Below are positions 10,191 through 35,283 of a DNA stretch of 64,000 nucleotides, piece after piece (position 1 is the stretch's first letter; the number at the start of each line of letters is the position of its first letter). Below the pieces are notes generated by a model that had not been told where the DNA came from, did no database searches, and was given only the letters and a program-made list of their open reading frames with translations. The stretch is from contig JAFUGC010000003.1 of assembly GCA_017469565.1 (NCBI GenBank), positions 13,656 through 77,655 of the forward strand, read 5' to 3'. The position numbers and the translations under genes are program-made. Origin of the DNA: Clostridia bacterium (GTDB lineage Bacteria > Bacillota > Clostridia > TANB77 > UBA1234).

Positions 10191-10316
10191 ACCGTAAAGT
10201 GTGTTTATATGAATGGTGGTCAAGGAAAGACTATGAACCTTGTCAGGTCCGGAAGGAAGCAGCAATAAGTAGATCCTTTTTTGTGATACACCATTCATAT
10301 AAGCGTATTTTACGGT
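10191..10316 (+). ncRNA. ffs: signal recognition particle RNA (small/4.5S-type)
   Basis: Contains the conserved domain IV sequence GTCAGGTCCGGAAGGAAGCAGC. The long closing helix is ACCGTAAAGTGTGTTTATATGAATGGTG...CACCATTCATATAAGCGTATTTTACGGT, followed by a T-run. It sits in the canonical position upstream of dnaX. The 5' end is approximate. Confidence 0.75.
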
Positions 10317-19063: not shown

Positions 19064-19417
19064 TGGTGGAAATGAGGAGAATCGAACTCCTGTCCGAAAA
19101 TTCTTCCATATCAACTTCTCCGAGTGCAGTTTATCTTTTAAAATTCCCATATTTGAAACGCCGATAAACAGGCTTTTCAAAACAGTAACTTGATAAATAC
19201 CCACTATCTCAAAGTTTTGATAGTTTTGTTTCCACTTTTAGATGACGCTTGCACCCAACGAAAGTGGCACATCAGGGCAAACGAAGCCGCAACTAGGCAG
19301 CTAAAGCAACTTTATTGTTGTTAATTATTTTTATTCTCACATTTTTTAGATGGCCAAGTGAGAATCCATCACTCGCTATTGATACTTCTAAATATCCGTC
19401 GAAACCATTACATCCCC
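19064..19417 (-). ncRNA. ssrA: transfer-messenger RNA
   Basis: On the minus strand it reads 5' GGGGATGTAATGGTTTCGAC ... GGAGTTCGATTCTCCTCATTTCCACCA 3'. The internal tag reading frame ends ..AAC AAC AAT AAA GTT GCT TTA GCT GCC TAG (..NNNKVALAA*). Confidence 0.9.
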
Positions 19418-22716: not shown

Positions 22717-23169
22717 ATGAGACTATCAGAATTAATTGAAGAATATATCAAAAGTATGATGGCAGATAGTGATGAGTTTGTAGAGTTTGGAAGAAATGAA
22801 TTGGCAGAATATTTTCACTGTGTACCATCGCAAATCAATTATGTCATTAGCACACGTTTTAGTCCTGAAAGAGGCTATTATGTAGAAAGCAGAAGGGGTG
22901 GTGGCGGAAACGTCAAAATCAAAAGAATTGATATCACAAAGGATACTTATATTATGCACCTTGTCAATTCTTTAGATAAGAGTTTATCTCAGCAAGAAGC
23001 GGAAATAATGATTCATAATATGATTGATTATCAGGTGATTGATGAGAAGACGGGAAAGCTTTTGAAAGTGGCAACCAATGATAAGGTGCTAGGGCTGCCA
23101 AAGGAATATAGGGATGATGTGAGAACAAGAATTTTTAAGAATATGATTATTAATTTAATCAGTGAGTGA
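22717..23169 (+). CDS. ctsR: class III heat-shock repressor CtsR
   Basis: MRLSELIEEYIK.., Gly-rich loop SRRGGGGNVKI, and its position ahead of mcsA-mcsB-clpC. Confidence 0.9.
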   Translation: MRLSELIEEYIKSMMADSDEFVEFGRNELAEYFHCVPSQINYVISTRFSPERGYYVESRRGGGGNVKIKRIDITKDTYIMHLVNSLDKSLSQQEAEIMIHNMIDYQVIDEKTGKLLKVATNDKVLGLPKEYRDDVRTRIFKNMIINLISE

Positions 23170-23204
23170 GGAATGGGCCTGTGCCTAAAAAGGAGGTAAT
23201 TTTT

Positions 23205-23780
23205 ATGAAATGTCAAAATTGTGGAGAAAATGAAGCAAATGTAAGATATACACAGATTATTAATGGAAAAAAAGAGGAAATTTTTGTTTGTGATAAGTGT
23301 GCCAGTCAGTTAAAGTTGGATATGAATTTTAAGTTTGGATTTGATGATGTCTTTTCATCATTTTTTGGTGAGCCAGCCTTTTTTAAACCTCTTGAAATTT
23401 CTGATGGTTTAGTGTGTGATGTGTGTGGCACCAAGTATGATGACTTTGCAAGTACTGGAATGTTAGGATGTGAAAATTGTTATCGTGTTTTTAGCAGGAG
23501 GCTTGATAACGTCTTGAAGAAACTTCATGGTAATAATAGACATATTGAGGAGGGAGAAAGACAAGTTCCAATGTCATCAGAAATCAGTGCTTCGAAAGAA
23601 AAGAAAAAGAGTTTAGAAGAGGTGATTGCGGAGTTAAAAGAAAAACTAGCAAGTTGTATCAAGAGTGAAGATTATGAGCAGGCCGCGATTATCCGTGACA
23701 AGATAAAAAAATTGGAGAAAAAGTTAAATGATAAAAAATTCAATACCAAAAAATTGGAAGATAGAGAAAGAGGTGAGTGA
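23205..23780 (+). CDS. mcsA: McsA (zinc-finger / UVR-motif activator of McsB)
   Basis: CQNCGE..CDKC and CDVCG..CENC zinc fingers, plus the C-terminal UVR motif EDYEQAAIIRDKIKKLE. Confidence 0.85.
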   Translation: MKCQNCGENEANVRYTQIINGKKEEIFVCDKCASQLKLDMNFKFGFDDVFSSFFGEPAFFKPLEISDGLVCDVCGTKYDDFASTGMLGCENCYRVFSRRLDNVLKKLHGNNRHIEEGERQVPMSSEISASKEKKKSLEEVIAELKEKLASCIKSEDYEQAAIIRDKIKKLEKKLNDKKFNTKKLEDRERGE

Positions 23781-23782
23781 TC

Positions 23783-24784
23783 ATGAGTTGGTATTTGGAA
23801 AATGGGCCTGAATCAGATGTTGTAGTGAGTACTAGGGTAAGGCTTGCAAGAAATATTGTGGGTCACAAGTTTGTACCAAAGGCAAATGGGAAAGAGTTAG
23901 AAGAAGTAATGAATTTATTCAAGGAGAATAAAATAATTCCTGAACTTAGATTTGTAAGGCTTTGTGAATTGGATGAATTGATGCAAAATAGTTTGGTGGA
24001 GAAACATATCATTAGTAGAGATATTTTAAATGAGGAAAATGCAGCACTCTTACTCAATAATGATGAAGATGTTTGTGTGATGATTAATGAAGAGGATCAT
24101 GTTCGTATTCAAGCAATGAAGCCGGGATTGGATTTAAATGGTGCTTTAAAAATGGCCAAAGAAATTGATAGCAAGATTGCAAGCAAAGTGGAATATGCTT
24201 ATAGTGATATTTATGGATATTTGACAGCATGCCCAACCAATGTTGGTACTGGTCTTAGGGCTTCGGTTATGCTTCATTTGCCTGCACTTAGGATTACGGG
24301 TAGACTTGGCAAGATTATGGATGTGATTAGCAAGGTAAACCTAAATGTTCGTGGTGTTTATGGTGAGGGCACAGAAGCAATCGGAGATATGTATCAGGTT
24401 TCTAATAAGGCAAGTTTAGGAATGACAAATGAGGAAATAATTGTTAATGTAAAAGCAATTTCAAAGAAAATTATTGAACAAGAGAGAAAGGCTCGTGAAT
24501 ATTTAAAAGACAGAGGAATTGATTTTGAAGATAAGGTTTATCGTGATTATGGGATATTGACATCGGCAAGAAAGATTTCTTCCGATGAATGTGCTAAATT
24601 GATTTCCATTGTAAAACTTGGTGTGGATATGGGAATTATTAAAGAAATTGATTCTAAAAAAGTGAACGAAATATCAATCATGACAAAGCCTGCCACATTG
24701 CAAAAGTGCTATAAGGAGGCATTGGAACCAAATGAGAGAGATGTGAAAAGGGCAGAGTTAATTAAGAATATTATGAAAGAGTGA
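23783..24784 (+). CDS. mcsB: protein arginine kinase McsB
   Basis: Phosphagen-kinase-like motifs NEEDHVRIQ, CPTNVGTGLRAS and GVYGEG. Confidence 0.9.
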   Translation: MSWYLENGPESDVVVSTRVRLARNIVGHKFVPKANGKELEEVMNLFKENKIIPELRFVRLCELDELMQNSLVEKHIISRDILNEENAALLLNNDEDVCVMINEEDHVRIQAMKPGLDLNGALKMAKEIDSKIASKVEYAYSDIYGYLTACPTNVGTGLRASVMLHLPALRITGRLGKIMDVISKVNLNVRGVYGEGTEAIGDMYQVSNKASLGMTNEEIIVNVKAISKKIIEQERKAREYLKDRGIDFEDKVYRDYGILTSARKISSDECAKLISIVKLGVDMGIIKEIDSKKVNEISIMTKPATLQKCYKEALEPNERDVKRAELIKNIMKE

Positions 24785-24798
24785 GAAAGGAGAATTTT

Positions 24799-27228
24799 AT
24801 GGCAATGATGTATAAGTTTACAAATAGGGCGGAAAAAGCAATTGCGCTTGCCCAAGAGGCTGCAGCGGAACTTGGACATAATTATGTGGGGACAGAGCAT
24901 TTGCTTTGTGGCTTGCTTCGTGAGGGAAGTGGTCTGGCATACAGAGTGCTTACAGACCAAGGAATTACGGACGAGAAAGTAATGAATTTAATTGAAGAGT
25001 TAATTGGAAGAAATGATTCTTTGACAGAGATGCCAACCGGTTTTACACCAAGAACAAAGCGTGTTTTTGAGATTAGCTTTATGGAAGCGAAAAAAATTAA
25101 TAATAATTATATTGGAACGGAGCACTTGTTACTTGGCATTATGAAGGAGGGTGATAGTGTTGCGTCAAGGATTATTCTGGAATTAGGGGTGGATATTCAG
25201 AAATTATTTTCTGACTTAGTAAAAACATTAAATGATGAAAATAGTGGAGGGGCCACCACATCGCATAAGAAACAATCATATCATCAAACGCCAACCTTAA
25301 ATCAGTTTGGTAAGGATTTGACTTCTGATGCTACTTCTGGAAAGCTTGACCCTATTATCGGAAGAGATGATGAAATTGAAAGAATCATTCAGATTTTGAG
25401 TAGAAGAACCAAAAATAATCCATGTTTAATTGGTGAGCCGGGTGTTGGTAAAACAGCAGTGGTAGAAGGACTTGCAGAGAGAATTGTGGAGGGAAATGTT
25501 CCAGAAAATCTAAGGAATAAAAGGGTAGTAACACTGGATGTTTCTAGCATGGTGGCAGGAGCAAAATATCGAGGTGATTTTGAGGAAAGGCTTAAGAAGT
25601 GTTTGCAAGAAATTAAAAAGAGTGGAAATGTGGTTTTGTTTATTGATGAAATTCATACCATTGTTGGTGCCGGTGCAGCAGAAGGTGCCATAGATGCTGC
25701 AAACATTTTAAAACCACTTCTTGCAAGGGCAGAGATTCAAGTAATTGGTGCTACTACATTAAATGAGTATCGAAAATATATTGAGAAAGATGCGGCACTA
25801 GAAAGAAGGTTTCAACCAGTGATTGTGGGTGAGCCAACTACAGAGGAAACAGTTCAAATTTTGAGAGGAATCAGAGATAAATATGAGGCACATCATAAAG
25901 TAAAAATCACAGATGAGGCGATTAAGGCGGCTGTGGATTTATCGTCTAGATATATTAATGATAGGTATTTGCCAGATAAGGCGATTGATATCATGGATGA
26001 GGCAGCATCTAGGGTGAAACTTGCATCGCTTACGGCTCCTAAAGAAGTCAAGAAGATGGAGGAGAAAATTGAGGAAACGGTGAAAGAAAAAGAGGATGCC
26101 ATTAATACGCAAGATTTTGAGAAAGCCGCAAAATTAAGGGATAGAGAACAAAAGGAAAGAGCAAAACTGGAAAAAATGAAGGTGGAATGGGAACAGAAAA
26201 ATCAAATTGCTACAACAGAGGTGTCAGAAAATGAGATTGCTGAAGTAGTTGCAAAATGGACGGGAATCCCAGTGAGTAAAATATCTGAGGCAGAAACAAC
26301 AAGACTTAAGAATTTGGAGCAAGAACTTCATAAGAGGGTAATTGGTCAAGATGATGCCATTGTCGCAGTGAGTAAGGCTGTAAGAAGAGGAAGAGTGGGA
26401 CTTAAGGATCCTAAAAGACCAATTGGTTCCTTTATTTTCTTAGGCCCTACAGGTGTTGGAAAGACAGAGACCTGTAAAGCACTTGCAGAATGTTTATTTG
26501 GTGATGAAAATGCGATGATTCGAATCGACATGTCTGAATACATGGAGAAACATACCGTGGCAAAACTGATTGGCTCACCTCCAGGATATGTTGGTTATGA
26601 AGAGGGCGGCCAATTGACAGAAAAAGTGAGAAGAAAACCTTATTCTGTAATTTTATTTGATGAGATTGAGAAAGCGCATCCGGATGTATTTAATATATTA
26701 CTTCAAATATTGGAGGATGGTAGACTAACAGATTCTCAGGGGAGAACGGTAGATTTTAAAAATACGGTTATCATCATGACATCGAATGTGGGAGCAAGAA
26801 ATATCACAGATCATAAGGCAATTGGATTTAATAGTGCAGAAGAAAAGAAGAAAAACTATGAACAAATTAAGAGCGATGTGATGAGTGAACTTAAGAAGGA
26901 ATTTAGACCAGAGTTCTTGAATAGAGTGGATGAGATGATTGTATTTAAACAACTAGATGAAACTGAAATTGAAAAGATCGTGGACATTATGGTTAAGAAT
27001 TCTATTGCAAGACTTCAGGATAGAGAGATTAAAGTGTCTGTTACAAATTCTATGAAGAAACATATTGCGAAAAAAGGATTTGACCCGTTATATGGTGCGC
27101 GTCCGCTAAGAAGGGCAATCCAATCTTTGGTGGAGGATAAGCTGGCAGAAGGTATCTTGGATGGAAAGATTAAAGATGGAGAGAGTGTAACGTTGGATTT
27201 TGCAAAAGATGAGGTTGTGATTAAGTAA
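24799..27228 (+). CDS. clpC: ATP-dependent Clp protease ATP-binding subunit ClpC
   Basis: Clp_N repeats, two AAA+ modules (GEPGVGKT, GPTGVGKT), and UVR motif QDFEKAAKLRDRE. Confidence 0.95.
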   Translation: MAMMYKFTNRAEKAIALAQEAAAELGHNYVGTEHLLCGLLREGSGLAYRVLTDQGITDEKVMNLIEELIGRNDSLTEMPTGFTPRTKRVFEISFMEAKKINNNYIGTEHLLLGIMKEGDSVASRIILELGVDIQKLFSDLVKTLNDENSGGATTSHKKQSYHQTPTLNQFGKDLTSDATSGKLDPIIGRDDEIERIIQILSRRTKNNPCLIGEPGVGKTAVVEGLAERIVEGNVPENLRNKRVVTLDVSSMVAGAKYRGDFEERLKKCLQEIKKSGNVVLFIDEIHTIVGAGAAEGAIDAANILKPLLARAEIQVIGATTLNEYRKYIEKDAALERRFQPVIVGEPTTEETVQILRGIRDKYEAHHKVKITDEAIKAAVDLSSRYINDRYLPDKAIDIMDEAASRVKLASLTAPKEVKKMEEKIEETVKEKEDAINTQDFEKAAKLRDREQKERAKLEKMKVEWEQKNQIATTEVSENEIAEVVAKWTGIPVSKISEAETTRLKNLEQELHKRVIGQDDAIVAVSKAVRRGRVGLKDPKRPIGSFIFLGPTGVGKTETCKALAECLFGDENAMIRIDMSEYMEKHTVAKLIGSPPGYVGYEEGGQLTEKVRRKPYSVILFDEIEKAHPDVFNILLQILEDGRLTDSQGRTVDFKNTVIIMTSNVGARNITDHKAIGFNSAEEKKKNYEQIKSDVMSELKKEFRPEFLNRVDEMIVFKQLDETEIEKIVDIMVKNSIARLQDREIKVSVTNSMKKHIAKKGFDPLYGARPLRRAIQSLVEDKLAEGILDGKIKDGESVTLDFAKDEVVIK

Positions 27229-27349: not shown

Positions 27350-27958
27350 GTGATCACCGAAAAGAATAAAGAAAATATCATAAAAGGATTAGAGGCTGAG
27401 CTTGAAAATGGCACATTTTATCAAGTGAATCAGTGGGATGTGCTTGCAAACACTGACACGGATTTTTATCATGATGTTTTTGATTTATCTACATCAAAAA
27501 GTTATGCTACCCCTGAGTTTAAGGGTGTTGGGCTGTTTAGACCGCTTGTAAGTAATGAGTTTAATCCTTTAAATAGCACGGTTTATAATTATAAGGCAAG
27601 CTATGAGGCACCGGTACATGGAATGGCGTTTACTGGTAAGAATGGAGAGTATGTGGAGTCACATTATCTTTCCGGATTGAATTTAGGAGCAAGCATCACC
27701 AATGAGTTTGGTACAGTTACAGTGGAAGCGCCGGTTACTCATATAGATATGAAAATTAATAATATGGGTACGGATGATAATGTTCAAGTAAATATGGCTG
27801 ATATTCTACCAAATACCCAAACTGCTAATGTGATAGATTTTGCATCGGTTCCACAAGAACTTGCACTTGCCAAAAGAAATCATTGGAAAGATATTCTATT
27901 TATGGATGTGGATATTATAGGCAGTGTAAAGAAACTTTGGAAAAATATTTCTGTATAG
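27350..27958 (+). CDS. hypothetical protein
   Basis: 202-aa ORF with a GTG start after AGAGGGGG. No motif recognised. Confidence 0.45.
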   Translation: MITEKNKENIIKGLEAELENGTFYQVNQWDVLANTDTDFYHDVFDLSTSKSYATPEFKGVGLFRPLVSNEFNPLNSTVYNYKASYEAPVHGMAFTGKNGEYVESHYLSGLNLGASITNEFGTVTVEAPVTHIDMKINNMGTDDNVQVNMADILPNTQTANVIDFASVPQELALAKRNHWKDILFMDVDIIGSVKKLWKNISV

Positions 27959-27983: not shown

Positions 27984-28018
27984 AAGTGTGTAAGTGATTT
28001 TACTTACACACTTTTTTT
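27984..28018 (+). terminator. rho-independent terminator
   Basis: AAGTGTGTAAGT-GATTTT-ACTTACACACTT followed by T5. Confidence 0.85.
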
Positions 28019-28148: not shown

Positions 28149-29093
28149 ATGAAAAAGGAGGAATGTTTTTTGAAACGGGATTGTAGACTTATTGCAACGC
28201 TACCTTCATTGAGTAATTTGAAAAAGGTGCAAGAGGTTTTTGAGAGTGATTGTGTAGATGAAGTAAGGTTTAATACGGGAGTGCATGTGCCTTTTGCGGC
28301 GGAAGAAGCGCTGGATATTTTACAAAGGTTGTCACTGAAGTATGATAAGAAACTTTGGATTGATGTGAAGGGCAGGCAGCTTAGGATTAGCAAGTGGGCG
28401 GATCCTTTGTATTCTTGCATTGAACTCAATCACCATGTGGAGGTTTTATATCCGGCAGAGGTTTGTTTTAGAAATGGTGATCGGGTGAGAATTGCCCATA
28501 TCAAAGATGGAAATAAACTTTTTGTGGAACCGCTGCCCAAAGAGGCGCTTGGTGCAGGGCAGTCTGTGAATATTATTGGGAGAGATGTTGAGATTGATGG
28601 TTACTTAACGGAGAAAGATAAAGAGTACTTAACTGCTTGCGCTAAGCTGGGTATGCCTTGGATTATGGCTTCTTTTGTAGAAGAGTTCTTGGATTTCATG
28701 GAGATTTTGACGCTCCAACCGAATGCTCAAATTATGGCTAAAATTGAGTCACTCAAGGGAATGGAGCTTGTGACAAGGCATCCATCTGTACTTATGGAGA
28801 AGTTTAACATTTTTTCTCTAATGGCTGCGAGAGATGACCTGTATATTCAGACAGGTGAAAATTGCAGCATGTTAAAGCATTTGAAAGCAATTGTTGATGT
28901 GGACAGTGGGGCAGTTTGTGCATCCCGGATTTTCCCTTCTTTGGAGAGAAGGCAAACGCCTGAGTTTGCAGATTATGCGGACTTGGAACTCATGTATAGC
29001 ATGGGCTATCGGAGGTTCATGCTGTGTGATAACATATGCAATTACCATTTTGAAAAAGCAATCAAAGCATGGAAGGAGTTTCAGCATGGATAG
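28149..29093 (+). CDS. pyruvate-kinase-like TIM-barrel protein lacking the C-terminal regulatory domain
   Basis: Collinear with PK barrel motifs: RLIATLPS (cf. KIVCTIGP), VRFNTGVH (cf. ARLNFSHG), IDVKGRQLRI (cf. LDTKGPEIR), LTEKDKEYL, IMASFVE (cf. IAASFVR), IMAKIESLKG (cf. IIAKIENQEG), MAARDDL (cf. VARGDLG). The likely true start is TTG 28170, 8 nt after AAGGAGG. Confidence 0.65.
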   Translation: MKKEECFLKRDCRLIATLPSLSNLKKVQEVFESDCVDEVRFNTGVHVPFAAEEALDILQRLSLKYDKKLWIDVKGRQLRISKWADPLYSCIELNHHVEVLYPAEVCFRNGDRVRIAHIKDGNKLFVEPLPKEALGAGQSVNIIGRDVEIDGYLTEKDKEYLTACAKLGMPWIMASFVEEFLDFMEILTLQPNAQIMAKIESLKGMELVTRHPSVLMEKFNIFSLMAARDDLYIQTGENCSMLKHLKAIVDVDSGAVCASRIFPSLERRQTPEFADYADLELMYSMGYRRFMLCDNICNYHFEKAIKAWKEFQHG

Positions 29094-30549
29094 TTATGTA
29101 TTATGTGGAATGCAGTTCGGTGATGAAGGAAAAGGTACGTTTGTTGACTATATGTCACATAGAGAAGACGCGGATGCCGTTGTCCGGTATAACGGAGGTT
29201 CACAGGCATCGCATACGGTGGTGACTCCAAGTGGAACGCTTCATAAGTTTAGTCAGTTAGGTTCCGGAATGTTTTTGGAAAATTGTCACACATATATTAC
29301 GGAAAACACTGTGGTGAACCTGGATAATCTTATGGTGGAGTTGAAGGTTTTTTCGGAAAAAACTGGTATTTCTGTTTCTGAACTCATCAATCGGATTCAC
29401 ATTCATGAGAATTGTTTTGTGGTAACGCCTTATCACAAGCTGCTGAACAAGCTAAGAGAATTGTCATTGGGAGAAAACCGCAGAGGAACGGTTGGCACTG
29501 GTGTGAGTGAGGTCCGGTATGTGTTGGAAGAGTCTCAAAATTTTCCGCTTGAGCCATCCTTAGGGGTTCAAGTAAAAGATATTTTTGATTCTCGTGGTAT
29601 TCGTCCACTCCTTGCTGGTTTCATGGGGCTTCATGAGTATGTGAGTGCGTTCTATCAGGAAAATCAGGAAGTGATTTGGAAAAATACTCCTGAGGAGATG
29701 AAAGAGGGTTTACAGAAAGAGATAGATTCTTTGCTTTCTGGACAAGTTTTTAATCTTACTAACATTTATAGAAGATACTTTAATACGGTACCACGAGAGT
29801 TTAACCTGAAAAGATGTATTTATAGTACTTATGAACAGTCTTTGCACGCAAACTGTAAGAAGGTGATTTTTGAGGGGTCACAGGGACTTTTGATTGATGG
29901 TAAATATGGCATCAAGCCGAATACCACTTTTCTGGATACCACCAATCAGTTTGCTTTGAGGATAAGTAGGTACACGGACCATGTGACAAAGGTTGGTATC
30001 GTGAAGGCTTTTAGCTCTCGGCATGGACCAGGTATATTTCCCACGGAATCAGAGGAAGTGAGCAGTAAGATTCAAGACCCAAATCAGGAGGAATCTTTCT
30101 GGAATGGTAAGATTCGTTTTGGGTGGCTGGATGTGGTGCTGCTCCGGTATGCACAGCACATCAACCAGGTGGATGAGCTTTATTTGTCTTCCTTGGACCT
30201 GCTGGATGATTTTGAGGAACTCAAAATTTGTGTTGGTTATATATACGATGGCAAGGTAGATGAAGAATTCAATCGGACTTTCGAATATGTTGATATGTTG
30301 GACGGTAGGAAGTATATTGATGATATTGTGATGCCCAGTGACAGGCTGGGAGAGTACTTGAAACTTTGCGTTCCGGATTACATGTGCATCAGAGGCTGGA
30401 AGAAGGATATTTCTCAGGTGACTGATCAGGAGGAACTGCCAGTTCGGTGTAGAAATTACATTGGCTGGCTGGGACGTCTTATGAATCTTCCTGTTACGGT
30501 GGTGTCTGTGGGACCTACTCGGGAAAACAAGATACGAATGGATTCTTAG
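29086..30549 (+). CDS. divergent adenylosuccinate synthetase (PurA) family protein
   Basis: Start ATG 29086 (GGAAGGAG RBS) overlaps the upstream stop by 8 nt. PurA motifs present are QFGDEGKG, RYNGGSQASHT, FEGSQGLLID, VKAFSSRHGPGIFPTE, FGWLD, SSLDLLD and VSVGPTRE. The Arg-rich loop before GWLD is degenerate (WNGKIRF). Confidence 0.8.
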   Translation: MDSYVLCGMQFGDEGKGTFVDYMSHREDADAVVRYNGGSQASHTVVTPSGTLHKFSQLGSGMFLENCHTYITENTVVNLDNLMVELKVFSEKTGISVSELINRIHIHENCFVVTPYHKLLNKLRELSLGENRRGTVGTGVSEVRYVLEESQNFPLEPSLGVQVKDIFDSRGIRPLLAGFMGLHEYVSAFYQENQEVIWKNTPEEMKEGLQKEIDSLLSGQVFNLTNIYRRYFNTVPREFNLKRCIYSTYEQSLHANCKKVIFEGSQGLLIDGKYGIKPNTTFLDTTNQFALRISRYTDHVTKVGIVKAFSSRHGPGIFPTESEEVSSKIQDPNQEESFWNGKIRFGWLDVVLLRYAQHINQVDELYLSSLDLLDDFEELKICVGYIYDGKVDEEFNRTFEYVDMLDGRKYIDDIVMPSDRLGEYLKLCVPDYMCIRGWKKDISQVTDQEELPVRCRNYIGWLGRLMNLPVTVVSVGPTRENKIRMDS

Positions 30550-30572
30550 AGAGAAGAAGAGGAGGATTATGC

Positions 30573-31175
30573 ATGAAAGATAAGCTTTATGAAGAGATTG
30601 ACCGGCGTATTACCACTGGTCAAAAGGTGAATGTGCTGATTGCTGGGATGACCTGTTCCGGAAAGAGCACTCTTGCCAGAGAAATTCAGGAGCATTATGT
30701 GTTTGGAAAGCATCCTAAACAGGTGTCTATTATTTCTCAGGATTGTTACTTTAAAAATTTAGGATTGATTCCTAGAAATAAAGGCGGCTATTTGATGGAT
30801 TCTCTTTATGCCTTTCATGCAGATGAGTACCGGGCTCATGCACAGTATCTGACTCAACATGGAACGGTGAGAGTGCCTCAGTATGACATTGCCAGAAATA
30901 AAAGGACGGCGGAATACACTAAAATTGAAAATGGAGATATTAATATCTTTGAGGGTTTGCATAGCATCCGGATATTAAGTGGACTGTGGCATAATGTAAA
31001 AGTCTATTTGGATACTGATGTAGAAACCTGCCTGGAAAGAAGGATTGCAAGGGATACGTCTTTATATGACGTGCCGGAGGAGCGCATTCGTGAGTACTGG
31101 GCGGAGTGTATTATGCCCTTAAGTAGAGAGTTCATTTTCCCGCAAAAGGAAATGGCGGATTGGATTATCAGCTAA
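30573..31175 (+). CDS. uridine kinase / phosphoribulokinase-family P-loop nucleoside kinase
   Basis: Walker A GMTCSGKST, plus SQDCYF, FEGLHS and RRIARDT, collinear with Udk. Confidence 0.75.
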   Translation: MKDKLYEEIDRRITTGQKVNVLIAGMTCSGKSTLAREIQEHYVFGKHPKQVSIISQDCYFKNLGLIPRNKGGYLMDSLYAFHADEYRAHAQYLTQHGTVRVPQYDIARNKRTAEYTKIENGDINIFEGLHSIRILSGLWHNVKVYLDTDVETCLERRIARDTSLYDVPEERIREYWAECIMPLSREFIFPQKEMADWIIS

Positions 31176-31189
31176 AGGGGGAAATGCTT

Positions 31190-32236
31190 ATGACGGTTAA
31201 GGAAATTTATGAAAGGCTGCTGAGGGCCAAACGGCCGGTGGATTTTTTTGGTGAGGCTACCACGGAAGAGGAGCTGAAAAGGTTCTATAAGGATTTTGCC
31301 AAAAAGGTTCATCCGGATTTAGTGCCTGACTGTGACAGGTATCTTGCCGGTGAGGCGTTTTCTGTGCTGAATAGACTTTATCATTTGGGTCTTGCTGAGT
31401 TCCAACAGGGCATTTATGGCGTAATTGACCAGGTGCAACTGTATTCGCATCAGTCGCCGCTGTTTGAAATCACGGCTGGAGGAAAGCGGTATCAGTTTTT
31501 TGAGAATGTGTTTGAAGGCGAGGTTGCCTATCTTTTTAAGGGGAAGTCGGCCGATGATGATATTGTGTATCTGAAAGTAGCGATTGACCCAGCAGACAAT
31601 GAACTGATTGACACGGAGTATGATGTGCTTTCCACGCTTAGGCATCAGTCTTTTCCATATGTGGAACAGAAAATTCAGGTGAATGATACCAGGGCCATTT
31701 TGATGCGAGAGGTGAAGGGCATTACTATGCTGGAGCTTTTGGAGCAATATCCGCATGGTGTGCCTGCAGAGCATGTGATGTGGATGCTGGAGCGCCTGCT
31801 GAGTGCTGTGGGGTATCTGCATGCTAACTTTGTGGTGCATGGGAATATCAAGCCGGAAAATATCATCATTAACAAGGAAAATCATAATGTTTCCTTGGTT
31901 GGTTTTTCTTTCTGTATTCCTAAGGCGAATACCCCAGAGGCAAAGTACAAGATTCAAAATGATAATTATTCTGCTCCTGAGGTAAGTGCGGATGCCACGG
32001 TTTATCCGGCATCGGATGTATATTCGGTTGGCAAAATTGCGATTGCGCTTTTAGGAGGTGCCGTTTCTTCTTCTGGAATGCCCATTTCCGTGAATGCGAA
32101 AGTGAGGGCGTTTATCCGGAAAATGGTGAATCCTTCTATGATGGATAGACCAGACGATGCCTGGAAACTCTGGACGGAGCTGATTGAGCTCAGAACGGAA
32201 GTTTTTGGAACTCAGCGGTTTCAAAAATTGGACTGA
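31190..32236 (+). CDS. J-domain protein fused to a Ser/Thr-kinase-fold pseudokinase
   Basis: J-domain with the HPD tripeptide (FAKKVHPDL). The kinase fold has VYLKVAI (beta3 Lys), SAPEV and SDVYSVG, but the catalytic loop reads VHGNIKPEN (HRD Asp replaced by Asn) and the DFG position reads VGFSF (Asp lost). Start ATG 31190 is 8 nt after AAGGGGG. Confidence 0.75.
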   Translation: MTVKEIYERLLRAKRPVDFFGEATTEEELKRFYKDFAKKVHPDLVPDCDRYLAGEAFSVLNRLYHLGLAEFQQGIYGVIDQVQLYSHQSPLFEITAGGKRYQFFENVFEGEVAYLFKGKSADDDIVYLKVAIDPADNELIDTEYDVLSTLRHQSFPYVEQKIQVNDTRAILMREVKGITMLELLEQYPHGVPAEHVMWMLERLLSAVGYLHANFVVHGNIKPENIIINKENHNVSLVGFSFCIPKANTPEAKYKIQNDNYSAPEVSADATVYPASDVYSVGKIAIALLGGAVSSSGMPISVNAKVRAFIRKMVNPSMMDRPDDAWKLWTELIELRTEVFGTQRFQKLD

Positions 32237-32292
32237 GAGTGTGTTGGTTGAACATGACGCATGAAACAAATTAGTATAAGGAGGAAATCACA

Positions 32293-33243
32293 ATGGGTGG
32301 AAGCAGCTATGACCGGGATGTGTACAGTGGTAGCTCTAGTTCAGGCTGGGGTGCTAGTTCTTATTCAGCAATGAAGATGGGCAGTAGCACTTTGGATAGC
32401 TCCCTGAGGGCTAATGGTAAGATTCTGAAAAGTACAAGCAAGAATCCTATTATTGTGGTGCTGGATGTGACTGGCTCCAACATTGATTTTGCCAGATTGG
32501 TTTATGACAAGATGCCGATGTTTTATGGGCAGATTGAGCAGAAGGGGTATTTGGATGACTTTGATATTGCTTTTTGTGCGGTGGGTGATGCCTACACGGA
32601 TGATTATCCTTTGCAGATAGGTGATTTTGCAAAGGGGATTGCTTTGGACTCCCAACTGGAAAAGTTAGTGCTGGAGGGTGCTGGCGGAGGCCAGAGGAAG
32701 GAGTCTTACGAGCTTGCCGCTTATTATCTGTATAAGAATGCGGAGTTTCCACCGGGCAGTAAGCCTCTCATCTTCTTTATTGGAGATGAGGCACCTTATC
32801 CTAAGGTGAATGAGGTTCAGGCTCAGGAGTTTGGCATTGACTGCACTGAAGGTAATGTGGAGCCTTTTGAGCTTTTGCGGAAGAAGGTAAATGACAATGT
32901 CTTTATGCTCTTGAACAAGTATTGCAGTAGGAGTTTTGAAAGTGACATTACAGAGGCGTGGACCACGCGGTTGGCGCCAGAACATGTGATTAAGATTCAG
33001 GAGGAAAAGGCGATTGTGGACCTGATGCTGGGCATTATCTCCATGGTTTCGAATGCGAGAACGCTAGAGACTTATAAGGTGGATATGCTGGATAGAGGGC
33101 AGACACAGGAGCGGATTGCCGGTGTTTCGGAATCGCTTCAGAATTTTTCAAAGGTCACATCGATTGTGCCTGTGAAGGTGTCTGGGATAATTCCCAAGGC
33201 TTCCGGTGGGAAGCAAAGCACTCAGAAGGGCAAACGCCTGTAA
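32293..33243 (+). CDS. von Willebrand factor A (vWA) domain protein
   Basis: MIDAS-like IIVVLDVTGS, later FFIGDEAPY, and the beta-alpha-beta periodicity of vWA. TAAGGAGGAA RBS. Confidence 0.7.
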   Translation: MGGSSYDRDVYSGSSSSGWGASSYSAMKMGSSTLDSSLRANGKILKSTSKNPIIVVLDVTGSNIDFARLVYDKMPMFYGQIEQKGYLDDFDIAFCAVGDAYTDDYPLQIGDFAKGIALDSQLEKLVLEGAGGGQRKESYELAAYYLYKNAEFPPGSKPLIFFIGDEAPYPKVNEVQAQEFGIDCTEGNVEPFELLRKKVNDNVFMLLNKYCSRSFESDITEAWTTRLAPEHVIKIQEEKAIVDLMLGIISMVSNARTLETYKVDMLDRGQTQERIAGVSESLQNFSKVTSIVPVKVSGIIPKASGGKQSTQKGKRL

Positions 33244-33253
33244 GATGAATTTT

Positions 33254-33287
33254 GGTGGTACACTTATTTTAGTGTACCACCTTTTTT
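33254..33287 (+). terminator. rho-independent terminator ending the five-gene operon
   Basis: GGTGGTACAC-TTATTTTA-GTGTACCACC followed by T6. Confidence 0.85.
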
Positions 33288-33410: not shown

Positions 33411-34832
33411 ATGGGTATTCGAAACTGGTTAAACCGCAGGCGTGAGATGGAAGACGGACTGGATGATGCGGCTGTTACTAGTTCAACTGGTTCAACCACT
33501 TCAACCGCTTCAACCGTGAATGACACTTCTTGTCATGTGAAGGTTCCCGAGAAGGTGGAGAATCTTCCGCAGATAGAGCGTGAGGCACTTTACCGGTGGA
33601 GCAAAGTGTTTTTGGGAGAAGTGGCGAGTGCAGATTATACCAAGCGGTTTGTGAAGTCCCTGAATATCAGCCCGTATCATATGGGAGATACTTATTGGAA
33701 TGTTAAACAGGAAGAAATGGAAAGGATTGGCTGTCTGACGGAGTGCTACCGGGCGTGCATCAGCAGAGTCTTTGCAGAGAATAATTTTCTGGCCGGCCCT
33801 GAGATGCTGGAAGAACTCATACGGGTTGTCACGGCAAATCTGGTAAGTCGCATGCTTCAGGAAACAGATATCACTTATGATTATGATCTGTCTGAGTATG
33901 AGAAAGAGATTTTTCAGTTTGGTTCAGAGCTTTTGAAGGCGGTTTATTGGGTGGCCACCGAGAATGTGGTGGATTTTGTTAGTCTTTACGAGAAAATCAA
34001 TCACGGTATTGATTTCAGGCTGAAAAGCATGTATGGGCCGGAGATTACATACCGGTATACTTACCTTATTCCGGCGGAGTATCTGTTTGAACTTCCTGAT
34101 TTTGTTTATGAAAAGAGATTGGGCAGTATTCAAGACAGGATGGAGGCTGTTCATGATGTGGAAGCCATCATTAGTGGAGTTCTTTCTCGGGATAATGATA
34201 TTGGTGATGGCGCAGTATACCTTTCCAAGCTTAAGGAATTCATGATAAAAGAAAAGGAGTTTCTGACACTGGATTTTGAGCATATTCTGTTCCAGTATTT
34301 TGAAGAGTTTAAAGAGGAGAACGAATTAACGTCCTATAACTTTTATGCTTATGGGATACATGACCTGATTGCTGCTATTCCGCAATATTTCCCGGAAATG
34401 ATTGTGGAGTCTTTTGAGTATCAGCTGGCAATGATGCAGCGTGTTTATGTATGCCAAGATGAAGTGGAGATGTTTGAAGAGGATCTGGTGGATCTGTATG
34501 AACGCATCGTCATTTATCGGAATTATAGAGCGGAAGATTTTCAGGTAACTGATTCTGATTCCTGGAAAGCAACTATTAGTAGTTTTTTTGAACTGGGGCT
34601 TTCGGGGTATGCACTGACCAGAATTTCGGATTTGCTCACGGATGGTTTAGGCGTGAGCAGAGATGAAGTGGAAGCGTACATTGAGAGTCTGACCCGGGAT
34701 TATTTGGATGATTGCTACTGGATTGGTACGGATGAGGAGAGCCTCATTCATATGATTCGGCTGCTGTCTAATCCTGTTGTTTACCGTGTGATTGAAGAAG
34801 AGAAGCCGGCCATCATTGACTGCTTCTGGTAA
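33411..34832 (+). CDS. hypothetical acidic, probably all-helical protein (473 aa) linked to the island
   Basis: AAGGAGG RBS. It has the same GC-rich composition and CGG usage as the preceding operon. It has an S/T-rich linker near the N-terminus and no recognisable motif. Confidence 0.55.
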   Translation: MGIRNWLNRRREMEDGLDDAAVTSSTGSTTSTASTVNDTSCHVKVPEKVENLPQIEREALYRWSKVFLGEVASADYTKRFVKSLNISPYHMGDTYWNVKQEEMERIGCLTECYRACISRVFAENNFLAGPEMLEELIRVVTANLVSRMLQETDITYDYDLSEYEKEIFQFGSELLKAVYWVATENVVDFVSLYEKINHGIDFRLKSMYGPEITYRYTYLIPAEYLFELPDFVYEKRLGSIQDRMEAVHDVEAIISGVLSRDNDIGDGAVYLSKLKEFMIKEKEFLTLDFEHILFQYFEEFKEENELTSYNFYAYGIHDLIAAIPQYFPEMIVESFEYQLAMMQRVYVCQDEVEMFEEDLVDLYERIVIYRNYRAEDFQVTDSDSWKATISSFFELGLSGYALTRISDLLTDGLGVSRDEVEAYIESLTRDYLDDCYWIGTDEESLIHMIRLLSNPVVYRVIEEEKPAIIDCFW

Positions 34833-34841
34833 GAATTTTGT

Positions 34842-34877
34842 GGTGGAGGAAAACTTGTTTCCTCCGCCATTTTTTTG
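34842..34877 (+). terminator. rho-independent terminator
   Basis: GGTGGAGGAAAC-TT-GTTTCCTCCGCC followed by ATTTTTTT. Confidence 0.85.
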
Positions 34878-34958: not shown

Positions 34959-35264
34959 ATGGAGAAGAATATTCGTGTTAGTATGCTCACAGAAATGTAT
35001 GGCAAATTGCTTACAGATAAGCAGTTTGATGTTGTTGATTTGTATTATAACAATAACCTATCACTTAGTGAAATTGCGGAAGAGCTTGGGATTACTCGTC
35101 AAGGGGTGCGCAAGATTTTGGTAAGTGCTGAGAATCATTTGTTTGAAATAGAAGAAAAATTGGGTTTCTTAGAGCAAAAGTTGCAGCAAAGAAAAGTTTT
35201 GAGTGAAGTGATTCGTCAAACAGAAGATAAATGGATAAAAGAAAAATTAACCAATTTATTATAA
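34959..35264 (+). CDS. ylxM: YlxM/p13-like putative DNA-binding protein (UPF0122)
   Basis: HTH region LSLSEIAEELGITRQGVRK, in the conserved position immediately upstream of ffh. ATG 34959 follows AGGAGGTGG. Confidence 0.85.
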   Translation: MEKNIRVSMLTEMYGKLLTDKQFDVVDLYYNNNLSLSEIAEELGITRQGVRKILVSAENHLFEIEEKLGFLEQKLQQRKVLSEVIRQTEDKWIKEKLTNLL

Positions 35265-35283
35265 AGATAAAGGAGTTTCGAGA

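Follow-up and report, generated by a model that had tools for sequence, protein, structure and literature searches.

The window, that is the whole stretch of 64,000 nucleotides that was analyzed, contains a five-gene operon at positions 28149–33243. Its genes encode, in order, a mini pyruvate-kinase-like (PK-like) protein, a PurA-like enzyme, a uridine-kinase-like (Udk-like) protein, a J-domain protein with an inactive kinase fold (the J-pseudokinase) and a vWA-like protein. The genes are tightly spaced or have overlapping ends, with an 8-nt overlap between the end of gene 1 and the start of gene 2, and there are terminators on both sides of the operon. The features of the locus are:

27984–28013, + strand: intrinsic-terminator-like hairpin (13-bp stem, then a T-run) that closes the upstream gene and marks the 5' cassette boundary
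28149–29093, + strand: gene 1, minimal pyruvate-kinase-like TIM barrel without the C-terminal regulatory domain, 314 aa (Pfam PK barrel, E = 2.1e-10)
29086–30549, + strand: gene 2, divergent PurA-family (adenylosuccinate-synthetase-like) enzyme, 487 aa (Pfam Adenylsucc_synt, E = 8e-80)
30573–31175, + strand: gene 3, uridine/cytidine-kinase-like P-loop nucleoside kinase, 200 aa (Pfam PRK, E = 3.8e-17)
31190–32236, + strand: gene 4, fusion of a J-domain and a pseudokinase, 348 aa, fourth of the five operon genes
31190–31414, + strand: J-domain, approximately residues 1–75 of gene 4 (DnaJ matches of the family, N-terminal profile, AF2 helices)
31463–32209, + strand: protein-kinase fold, approximately residues 92–340 of gene 4 (Pkinase match, CDKL5 alignment, Foldseek)
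32293–33243, + strand: gene 5, vWA-fold protein, 316 aa (Rossmann-like vWA fold, MIDAS-like motif)
33254–33281, + strand: intrinsic-terminator-like hairpin (11-bp stem with 6 GC pairs, then TTTTTT) directly after gene 5, marking the 3' operon boundary

An earlier note on this DNA had described gene 4 as a J-domain fused to a dead kinase fold and encoded directly upstream of a vWA protein. The downstream neighbor does have a vWA fold, and this part of the context stands; the three conserved upstream enzyme genes of the same operon had been overlooked. The 473-aa protein also proposed there as a partner is discounted, based on its own perfect sigma-70 promoter, its own terminator and its absence from all 26 related loci. 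A 202-aa neighbor was likewise rejected as a partner because it has no homolog in the 26 related loci. No riboswitch was found by Rfam searches of the whole window and the operon leader; the Rfam matches in the window were tmRNA and SRP RNA, both located elsewhere than the leader.

Searches of all operon proteins against Pfam, NCBIfam and PADLOC gave no equivalog or system-level match. In PADLOC-DB v2 no system was matched by the operon genes at the thresholds used: 25 listed of the 33 pseudokinase matches were generic kinase-domain matches (MkoA, PD-T4-6, mad6, PglW), the Udk-like protein had a weak P-loop match, and the other operon proteins scanned, including the vWA protein, had none.

Three enzymes encoded upstream of the J-pseudokinase

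The gene 1 protein scores far under the pyruvate-kinase equivalog cut-offs. Its motif residues R40, N42, D72, K74, K198, E200 and D230 are invariant among 33 family members, and we take these to be the catalytic and metal-binding residues of pyruvate kinase. Of the 26 related loci, 23 carry the gene and the other three end before reaching it. The gene 3 protein has UCK2 (6e-16) and NRK1 (2e-5) as its nearest PDB sequences, and its P-loop, D57 and RRxxRD lid are each at least 90% conserved.

The gene 2 protein is below the cut-offs of the PurA and PurZ equivalog models, at 235 bits for PurA (cut-off 402) and 51 bits for PurZ (NF038379; cut-off 300). For residue mapping the E. coli PurA sequence served as reference, and the mapping was cross-checked against an alignment with 4m0g. 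Like PurA, the module ligase has the PurA fold and retains the GDEGKG P-loop, the catalytic Asp and His, EGxQG and the guanine-specific Asp. Unlike PurA, its clade has Q in place of N38 and (S/T)RHG (SRHG) in place of TRVG, and the aspartate-binding TTGR is replaced across the clade by W(N/Q)G(K/x), which reads FWNGK in the window protein. The PurA-like enzyme probably carries out new chemistry. All three module enzymes keep their catalytic residues and look catalytically competent.

In phages, PurZ belongs to the 2-aminoadenine pathway (PMC8342488), and the module ligase resembles it in being a phage-borne PurA paralog. A PurZ or Z-genome reading was rejected based on the failure of the window protein and its phage homologs to reach the PurZ cut-off, the homologs scoring 30–58 bits in five of six cases and the sixth giving no match. 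In the phage loci, no DatZ, MazZ or DpoZ was seen among the genes that had been annotated or scanned. A further difference from both PurA and PurZ is that the module ligase always travels with the vWA protein.

The J-domain, the kinase fold and the vWA neighbor

The ATG start codon of gene 4 at 31190 is preceded by AAAGGGGG. We preferred this start over a longer ORF beginning with TTG at 31160 because the J-pseudokinase homologs begin at the same N-terminal MTVKEIY. All of the motifs quoted in the earlier note are present in the 348-aa translation: KKVHPDL, with HPD at residues 41–43 (nt 31310–31318); the beta3 Lys of VYLKVAI, K129 (nt 31574–31576); the alphaC Glu of DTEYDVL, E143 (nt 31616–31618); the catalytic loop HGNIKPEN at residues 217–224 (nt 31838–31861); GFS at the DFG position, residues 238–240 (nt 31901–31909); and SAPEV, SDVYSVG and DRP. 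Together with the analyses below, this confirmed that the gene is a real fusion of a J-domain with a catalytically dead protein-kinase fold.

The window protein matched Pfam DnaJ (PF00226) with 21 bits (E = 3.6e-4), which is below the gathering score of 27.8, and 61 of 75 homologs matched the same model at E ≤ 0.01, the best with 8.8e-9. A profile of the N-terminal 82 residues searched against the PDB gave 65 matches at E ≤ 1, and J-domain proteins were found in essentially every row of the best 60 of these, the top match being DNAJA3 (4.8e-6). Each of H41, P42 and D43 is at least 90% conserved within the close family. The AF2 model has the expected J-type hairpin, with helix II (26–40) and helix III (47–73) flanking HPD, and in the profile alignment the basic residues of helix II and the A-E-A-F-x-x-L-x-x-L-Y pattern of helix III agree with canonical J-domains. 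The N-terminal J-domain proposed in the earlier note is therefore well supported, and as judged from these sequence comparisons its assignment at the family level is not due to chance. The conservation of HPD across 24–76% identity indicates selection on the DnaK-contacting triad.

There are subclades in which HPD is absent, reading FDPEF in P0079 and P0081 and RPERF in L045–L050. Other relatives that are still paired with the vWA gene have a zinc ribbon and an unknown domain in place of the J-domain; therefore DnaK recruitment is not obligatory for the pair.

The kinase fold is supported by a Pfam Pkinase match at residues 105–311 (E = 5.7e-20) and by an AF2 model of the J-pseudokinase with a pLDDT of 93.8. 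The top PDB matches by Foldseek were PLK1, PknA, Aurora A and PknB (TM 0.55–0.64 against the first three), so that the comparison with a PknB-like fold suggested previously bears out the kinase claim. A structure search of BFVD gave generic viral kinases only. In a phmmer alignment to CDKL5, K129, E143, HGN and GFS fall on the VAIK Lys, the alphaC Glu, HRD and DFG, respectively. The catalytic Asp of HRD is thus replaced by N219 and the metal-binding Asp of DFG by G238, as had been claimed, and K129, E143, N219 and G238 are all invariant across 75 close homologs. The GxGxxG loop is also gone, reading EGEVAYLFKG; the APE motif and C-lobe are intact.

Superfamily-wide searches identified 379 clusters (50% identity) of HGN-type pseudokinases at E ≤ 1e-30. 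Among the best 150 representatives, HPD occurs at the aligned position in 64, and the architecture, called unusual in the earlier note, is not a single case. The K-E pair is present in 139 of these 150. Their catalytic Asp is most often replaced by N (HGN in 75, other H-x-N loops in approximately 16), or else by A (HGA in 17), S, L, G or C. Asp is found at this position in only three of them, P0263 (2027 aa, a canonical HRD/DFG kinase) and two HGD members. The Asp at the DFG position is kept by most of the wider superfamily (DWC, DWS) but lost in the J-pseudokinase subfamily. These patterns point to an inactivation that is ancient and selected.

Relatives of the pseudokinase domain occur in fusions with NACHT, CHAT, caspase or active kinase domains. 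No vWA, PurA-like or PK-like domain was found in the long relatives, and only in P0093 is a pseudokinase fused to a module protein, in this case a Udk-like one.

With few exceptions, the gene directly downstream of the pseudokinase gene encodes a vWA-fold protein, which in turn is always accompanied by the divergent PurA-family enzyme. In the window, the gene 5 protein has a vWA (Rossmann-like) fold and, at the position of the MIDAS DxSxS motif, the MIDAS-like sequence DVTGS (residues 58–62, nt 32464–32478). Pfam vWA models do not detect this protein, and a sequence profile of the family gave nothing meaningful against the PDB; the fold was found by fold search. Its N-terminal motif MGGSSYDRDVY (nt 32293–32325) is conserved, disordered and rich in Ser and Tyr, and its C-terminus is KGKRL.

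Distribution of the module in bacteria and phages

All 22 related Firmicute loci that cover the full cassette have its genes in the same order as the window, and four truncated Firmicute loci fit this order (related loci have 42–76% identity). The survey of the domain fusion across genomes that the earlier note had suggested was carried out for 185,579 species genomes as a pattern-based scan and found 24 loci, a lower bound. The distribution across species genomes is sporadic. In the window, and likewise in each of the 19 other loci measured, the cassette has a higher GC content than its flanks; it is compositionally foreign in every locus measured. The Firmicute flanking genes are housekeeping genes (clpC, ffh, ribosomal proteins, tRNA synthetases) and not defense islands, and the flanks are shared between several loci, suggesting vertical descent within a clade.

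More distant metagenomic loci (24–35% identity) were collected with a subset alignment of 12 sequences. A vWA gene follows the pseudokinase in 26 of the 29 that have downstream sequence, directly so in 25 of these 26 and approximately 1.1 kb downstream in L068. Several of these loci also carry Udk-like, PK-like and PurA-like genes. Distant metagenomic bacteria have the same gene set in other orders. In seven metagenomic loci an NAD-salvage set (NAPRTase, Prs-like and NadE-NMNAT) lies directly upstream of the module.

Mycobacteriophage Cali encodes gp251 (HPD present, loop HGA), gp252 (vWA) and gp254 (PurA-like), and parts of the module occur in approximately 200 sequenced cluster C1 mycobacteriophages. 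Cali gp248 ("PnK") was rejected as a counterpart of the Udk-like kinase, to which it has no similarity. The IMG/VR contig L033 has the order pseudokinase, vWA, PK-like and PurA-like, with a TelA-like gene upstream of the module. The vWA and PurA-like pair was also found in Vibrio phage Va1, Rhizobium phage RHph_TM39 and contigs L034 and L035; in the Vibrio and Rhizobium phages it comes without any pseudokinase, and in RHph_TM39 it is adjoined by Nampt/PRTase-like and NMNAT-like genes. The five-gene module is shared by Firmicutes of the gut, by bacteria from the environment and by several groups of phages. It is apparently undescribed, as our literature searches on the J-domain/pseudokinase fusion and on the module found no paper describing either.

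Possible roles of the J-pseudokinase and its module

The earlier note had favored a sensing scaffold over a phosphotransfer enzyme, and with the catalytic residues lost family-wide this is the most reasonable reading of gene 4. From the data above we infer the function of the module and of all its parts: the five genes would form a mobile, self-contained module, with the J-pseudokinase as its putative regulatory subunit. We estimate a probability of roughly 40% that it is a client-specific J-protein, whose dead kinase holds or senses the vWA partner and whose J-domain fires host DnaK, thereby controlling the PurA-like pathway. Going by gene adjacency only, the pseudokinase domain would bind the vWA partner and the J-domain would recruit host DnaK and trigger its ATPase on the vWA client. 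The pseudokinase may also sense a purine nucleotide in an Mg-independent pocket. DnaK action would then switch the assembly state of a vWA/PurA-like complex. In the pathway gated in this manner, the Udk-like kinase would phosphorylate a nucleoside to the NMP, the GTP-dependent PurA-like ligase, with its remodelled amine-acceptor pocket, would modify the NMP at a carbonyl, and the mini pyruvate kinase would carry out a PEP-driven conversion of NDP to NTP. The module would be used in a phage-host struggle over nucleotide and cofactor pools, which it would restore or alter. In favor of a role in conflict are the NACHT, CHAT, caspase and active-kinase fusions of pseudokinase relatives, the NAD-salvage genes close to the module and the raised GC content of the cassette; against it are the housekeeping flanks of the Firmicute loci and the lack of a PADLOC system match.

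There is precedent for a phage J-protein that hijacks DnaK in Rki of phage RB43 (PMC3486835), and TerB-J proteins such as DjlA are among the architectures listed in PMC10410713. As in these class C J-domain proteins, an HPD J-domain is joined in the J-pseudokinase to a specialized, non-DnaJ client or localization domain, a phage version exists (mycobacteriophage gp251), and the expected action would be recruitment of host DnaK to one specific target. The differences are that the partner domain is a protein-kinase fold and that the operon around the gene is fixed and also encodes a vWA protein and nucleotide enzymes. No description of a J-domain joined to a kinase fold was found in the J-protein literature searched.

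Several eukaryotic-like pseudokinases, such as MLKL (HGK/GFE), STRADalpha and HER3, act as switches or scaffolds. Like them, the J-pseudokinase preserves the Lys-Glu pocket, has lost the HRD Asp and DFG Asp (its HGN/GFS being very close to HGK/GFE of MLKL) and has an N-terminal effector or adaptor domain. Unlike them, its family is bacterial and phage-borne, the attached domain is a J-domain and not a membrane-permeabilizing bundle, and no upstream activating kinase is encoded with it. If the client-specific reading is true, the J-pseudokinase would be the first J-protein of bacteria and phages to have a pseudokinase as its client-binding domain, and would link the universal DnaK machine with one specific regulatory switch. 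The module is compact and testable, having five genes in approximately 5 kb and a range from gut Clostridia to soil and aquatic bacteria, and its vWA protein bears a conserved N-terminal peptide. It also provides a handle on the function of mycobacteriophage genes now labelled "serine/threonine kinase", "hypothetical protein" and "PurA-like".

A more specific proposal, which we put forward tentatively and regard as somewhat unlikely, is that of a widely distributed conflict module of phages and bacteria in which the PurA-family ligase with its rebuilt pocket would make a new nucleotide derivative and the J-pseudokinase would be an Hsp70-coupled switch during infection, restoring or poisoning pools. 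One possible derivative would have the purine C6 joined not to aspartate but to the invariant glycine tail at the N-terminus of the vWA protein. NARP1 and NARP2 are phage NAD+ reconstitution pathways, and the module resembles them and other counter-defenses that act on nucleotide pools as a small phage-carried set of salvage-type enzymes, with NAD-salvage genes beside it. It differs from them in its enzymes and in being present also in bacterial chromosomes among housekeeping genes.

We consider it unlikely that the operon is an ordinary purine/nucleoside salvage operon of genome-reduced gut Firmicutes, with the pseudokinase and vWA protein as an energy or nucleotide sensor and no link to phages. 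In its favor are the three competent-looking enzymes, the housekeeping neighbors and the shared flanks that suggest vertical descent, and a route can be written from inosine through IMP and adenylosuccinate to ADP (by host PurB and Adk) and ATP; the NAD-salvage genes that adjoin the module in environmental bacteria are also in keeping with it. Opposed to this are the PurA-like enzyme, which falls under the PurA cut-off and has its aspartate-binding residues replaced clade-wide, the sporadic distribution and foreign composition of the cassette, the occurrence of the same genes in lytic phages and the fusion of pseudokinase relatives to NACHT, CHAT and caspase domains.

Less probable still is that gene 4 encodes an atypical but active enzyme, either a non-canonical kinase or one with other chemistry, which modifies the Ser/Tyr-rich tail of the vWA protein in the style of TerY-P. 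There are kinases that work in the absence of a DFG Asp (CASK), and pseudokinase folds that catalyze other reactions (SelO). The Lys-Glu pair, APE motif and C-lobe of the J-pseudokinase are intact, the invariance of the replacement residues N219 and G238 suggests function at that site, and the conserved, disordered N-terminus of the vWA partner could be a substrate. The TerY-P triad (a TerY-like vWA protein, a Ser/Thr kinase and PP2C), in which a vWA protein is paired with a kinase, has been proposed to be a metal-sensing phosphorylation switch, and TerY-P-like modules act as stand-alone antiphage defense (PMC11090510). The present module is like TerY-P in its adjacent kinase-fold and vWA genes and like Ter systems in the TelA-like gene of L033, and a nucleoside-derivative pathway (PMC7824862) forms a loose thematic link to the latter. 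Unlike TerY-P, the module has a dead kinase that lacks catalytic residues, no PP2C or other eraser in any locus examined gene by gene, and a vWA protein that has no Pfam vWA or PADLOC match; its enzymes are PurA-like, Udk-like and PK-like, as against the PRTase, HAD and ATP-grasp enzymes of Ter systems. The catalytic base is absent in all but two family-like members among the best 150 representatives, the DFG Asp and GxGxxG loop are also gone in the subfamily, and the PADLOC matches of the pseudokinase are not specific (generic kinase-domain in the 25 listed of 33), all of which argue against an active enzyme.

Finally, it is very unlikely that the N-terminal segment is a degenerate J-domain relic or an N-lobe cap without DnaK contact, with the pseudokinase serving merely as a vWA adaptor: the DnaJ score of the window protein under the gathering threshold, the relatives that lack HPD or have the whole segment replaced, and the lack of a dedicated Hsp70 or GrpE among the genes inspected in module loci would fit this explanation, but the high conservation of H41, P42 and D43, the HPD of 64 of the best 150 representatives and the canonical helix II and helix III patterns weigh against it.

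The five-gene cassette and its surroundings

The J-domain protein is one part of a larger finding than the earlier note had supposed, namely a whole conserved module that is shared by phages and bacteria and is apparently uncharacterised. That note had suggested that the protein, encoded directly upstream of a vWA gene, is a sensing scaffold; its J-domain and dead kinase stand, while the wider module had been overlooked, so that the interpretation is partly supported. In the window the module forms a five-gene operon with the pseudokinase as its fourth gene, and the features that bear on it are as follows.

10211-10299 (+), small SRP RNA gene (Rfam, 56 bits, gathering threshold)
19064-19417 (-), tmRNA gene (Rfam, 160 bits, gathering threshold)
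27350-27958, 202-aa ORF between clpC and the cassette, ending at the hairpin at 27984-28013
27984-28013 and 33254-33281, terminator-like hairpins
28149-29093, minimal pyruvate-kinase-like (PK-like) barrel
29086-30549, divergent PurA-family enzyme (PurA-like ligase), its start overlapping the preceding stop by 8 nt
30573-31175, uridine/cytidine-kinase-like (Udk-like) P-loop kinase
31190-32236 (+), J-domain pseudokinase, 348 aa
32293-33243 (+), vWA protein, 316 aa
33330-33358, perfect sigma-70-like promoter of the 473-aa gene (TTGACA-17-TATAAT)
33411-34832, 473-aa ORF with its own promoter and terminator
34840-34870, terminator of the 473-aa gene

From three genomic-context queries, together with a scan covering 185,579 species genomes, we obtained 26 related loci. 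Gut or rumen MAGs (Clostridia, Bacilli or "Tenericutes") account for nearly all of them, and the bacterial examples of the module come exclusively from MAGs and metagenomes. The five genes keep one order in each of the 22 loci covering the complete cassette, and what is left in the four truncated loci agrees with that order. The genes beside the cassette vary by clade and are mostly housekeeping genes. GC content is higher in the cassette than in its flanks in the window (0.44 versus 0.36) and likewise in every one of 19 further loci for which it was measured, the excess reaching 15 points (0.40 versus 0.25 in L002, for example), which suggests either repeated horizontal arrival or strong compositional constraint.

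In the window the island lies between two housekeeping blocks. The upstream block (23166-27228) contains ORFs whose translations we take to be mcsB- and clpC-like; the downstream one (34959-38869) begins with ylxM (Pfam UPF0122), and after it come ORFs that we likewise take to be ffh, a KH-domain gene, rimM, trmD and rplS. As ylxM-ffh is likewise directly 3' of the cassette in a Lachnospiraceae locus (L025), there is a hint of a shared insertion site. Rfam found no known riboswitch upstream of the operon. The 202-aa ORF matched nothing in any protein-family library and has no homologue in the 26 related loci. The 473-aa ORF had no match in Pfam, NCBIfam, PADLOC or PHROG, and we rejected it as part of the module because none of the 26 related loci contains it and it has its own promoter and terminator; with a GC content of 0.437, elevated as in the cassette, it resembles an independent cargo gene carried on the same island.

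Phage carriers, distant versions and the enzymes

Three of the cassette proteins match phage families: the pseudokinase over its full length (PHROG 3043, E 1.6e-17), the vWA protein (PHROG 2971, unknown function, E 2.7e-33) and the PurA-like ligase (PHROG 1211, E 2.4e-69). The pseudokinase and the vWA protein are both encoded by about 200 cluster C1 mycobacteriophages (Bixzunavirus). In phage Cali, gp251 (motifs "...AVHPDR...", "VHGAITPDN" and "IDWC"), gp252 (L029 8747-9766, with "LDVTGSN" and the C-terminus ...DRL) and the PurA-like gp254 lie within a 4-kb stretch, and a genome announcement includes the kinase and the PurA-like gene among the C1-specific conserved genes, with no function given (PMC9476963). 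A 139-kb IMG/VR contig (L033) has the order pseudokinase, vWA, PK-like, PurA-like, with TelA-like and AAA genes ahead. Vibrio phage Va1, Rhizobium phage RHph_TM39 and two further viral contigs have a vWA gene close upstream of the PurA-like gene (adjacent in three of the four, about 0.8 kb away in L034) and no pseudokinase gene. The constant core is therefore the vWA and PurA-like pair, which pseudokinase, PK-like and Udk-like genes accompany in many lineages.

A metagenome scan that started from a distant J-HGN clade returned 36 loci; this clade shares 24-35% identity with the window protein, and in the seed alignment HPD is invariant and the loop mostly HGNIEPxH. A vWA gene follows the pseudokinase in 26 of the 29 with any downstream sequence, directly in 25 and about 1.1 kb downstream in L068. 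In six loci the order runs from a Udk-like gene through the pseudokinase, a vWA gene with an inserted domain and a PK-like gene to a PurA-like gene; several others have part of this set. The conserved insert of this environmental clade (about 150-200 aa, motif LLWNNRNDLDLHL...GWLDVDMN...; L040 7159-8649, with homologues in L038, L039, L042, L043, L046, L047, L051, L052, L054-L056, L058 and L059) has no Pfam match and is lacking from the Firmicute and phage vWA versions.

The PK-like, Udk-like and PurA-like enzymes look active, as judged from their residues, with the ligase apparently re-targeted. R40, N42, D72, K74, K198, E200 and D230 of the PK-like protein, which we take to be the pyruvate-kinase catalytic residues, are invariant in 33 members, and the Udk-like protein conserves its P-loop, D57 and RRxxRD lid. 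The PurA-like ligase keeps GDEGKG, the catalytic His, EGxQG and the guanine-specific Asp. Its clade has changed N38 to Q, T129 to V or C, TRVG to (S/T)RHG and the aspartate-binding TTGR to W(N/Q)G(K/x), the E. coli PurA sequence serving for numbering only; the ligase therefore probably uses an acceptor amine, and perhaps also a nucleotide, other than those of PurA. Assignment of the ligase to PurA or PurZ was rejected, as it fails membership of both, and none of six phage ligases passes either model.

Seven metagenomic loci (L036, L038-L041, L047 and L059) have NAD-salvage-type genes directly upstream of the module, in most a CN-hydrolase/NadE/NMNAT fusion and otherwise an NMNAT-like gene, and three of the seven also have NAPRTase and Prs-like genes upstream. 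PRTase-like and NMNAT/Nudix genes are likewise near the pair in RHph_TM39 (L032 2495-4098). Plain salvage metabolism, with the pseudokinase and vWA protein as a sensor, would sit well with these neighbours and less well with a re-targeted ligase, and we consider it unlikely.

At the N-terminus of the vWA protein is a disordered motif, MG[GSY]Gx[WFY][DNS]xxxY (window 32293-32325), which is kept in Clostridia and in Vibrio, Rhizobium and Mycobacterium phages (window, Cali gp252, Va1_038, EVB32_018, L033-L035 and L040 compared); its Met-Gly-Gly shows no variation among 57 close homologues. Because the motif is also present where there is no pseudokinase, it more likely concerns the ligase, or assembly of the vWA protein itself, than the pseudokinase; it may serve the PurA-like enzyme as a substrate or a docking peptide, or act as an internal ligand of the MIDAS. 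The basic C-terminus (window 33229-33243) ends in RL in the window, L040 and Cali and in KL in L033.

The J-domain and the pseudokinase

The pseudokinase ORF is real: it starts at an ATG with AAAGGGGG ahead, and its product is identical to P0001 from an uncultured Clostridia MAG. We are highly confident that this protein is a J-domain joined to a pseudokinase. Every motif quoted in the earlier note was found in place: HPD (41-43), K129, E143, HGNIKPEN (217-224), GFS (238-240), SAPEV, SDVYSVG and DRP. Residues 105-311 match Pfam Pkinase (E 5.7e-20), and in a phmmer alignment with CDKL5 the Lys, Glu, HGN and GFS align exactly with the VAIK Lys, alphaC Glu, HRD and DFG. The AlphaFold2 model, built from 75 homologues, has a mean pLDDT of 93.8 and no disordered segments, and the solved structures that Foldseek ranked highest for it were PLK1, PknA, Aurora A and S. 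aureus PknB.

Across 75 close homologues (50-76% identity), K129, E143, N219 and G238 never vary. An exhaustive profile search over 1.8 billion cluster representatives gave 379 relatives at E<=1e-30, and among the best 150 of these the catalytic-loop triplet is HGN in 75, HGA in 17 and HGS, HCN, HAN or similar in the remainder. Only three carry the catalytic-position Asp, one being a 2027-aa canonical HRD/DFG kinase (P0263) and the others HGD. The Lys-Glu pair is retained in 139 and HPD is found in 64; the DFG Asp (DWC, DWS) is retained in most, with Gly instead in the window's subfamily. Loss of the catalytic base was therefore an early event. The salt bridge of the nucleotide pocket and the J-domain triad stayed under selection, and the pseudokinase state is a product of selection, not decay. 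An atypical active enzyme that modifies the Ser/Tyr-rich vWA tail would make use of the retained Lys-Glu pair and would have to do without the catalytic Asp; we think this improbable.

For the J-domain, the window protein alone scores 21 bits with Pfam DnaJ versus Pfam's 27.8, 61 of 75 homologues match at E<=0.01, and a profile of residues 1-82 found J-domain proteins in essentially all PDB rows among the matches listed. HPD conservation is at least 90% in close homologues, and the AlphaFold2 model has the helix II-HPD-helix III hairpin. The assignment is weaker for the single sequence and solid at the family level, and a non-functional J-relic, for which the low single-sequence score might speak, is quite unlikely given the conserved HPD.

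Some relatives have a zinc ribbon and an unknown domain in place of the J-domain and keep the vWA pairing. One clade (L045, L048-L050) has a degenerate J-motif, RPERF, where HPD is expected; vWA, PurA-like and PK-like genes are absent within 5 kb downstream of its pseudokinase relative, behind which come further large ORFs of 355, 448 and 865 aa. One homologue (P0093) is a Udk-like/pseudokinase fusion, and in another relative (P0387) the fusion partner is a cytidylyltransferase-like domain. Further relatives (P0276, P0295, P0287, P0305, P0373 and P0261) are fused to an active Pkinase, which makes a tandem kinase-pseudokinase, or to NACHT, CHAT, caspase or aspartyl protease domains. We read the NACHT, CHAT and caspase partners as typical of prokaryotic immunity, conflict or cell-death proteins.

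A putative assembly switch

All our functional statements on the module draw on sequence, predicted structure and gene context, from which we tentatively infer the following mechanism, with a probability of roughly 0.4 for the composite. The dead kinase domain would bind the vWA protein, and its Lys-Glu pocket may act as a nucleotide sensor; MLKL and STRADalpha have such pockets, able to bind nucleotide without metal. The J-domain, from its homology and conserved HPD, would recruit DnaK; the window protein would work like a class C J-protein, and Rki of phage RB43 provides a phage precedent for DnaK recruitment by a J-protein (PMC3486835). Remodelling driven by DnaK would flip the assembly state of the vWA and PurA-like proteins, and this switch would in turn control a nucleoside-to-modified-nucleotide pathway, the purpose of the module being a possible contest over nucleotide and cofactor pools.

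PADLOC matched no system to the operon, and we found no paper describing a J-domain-pseudokinase fusion or the five-gene module. The kinase-vWA pairing is similar to that of TerY-P triads (PMC11090510), but membership was rejected because the module has no PP2C, a dead kinase and no TerY model match. The theme of a nucleoside-derivative pathway with vWA and TelA proteins is similar to that of Ter systems (PMC7824862).
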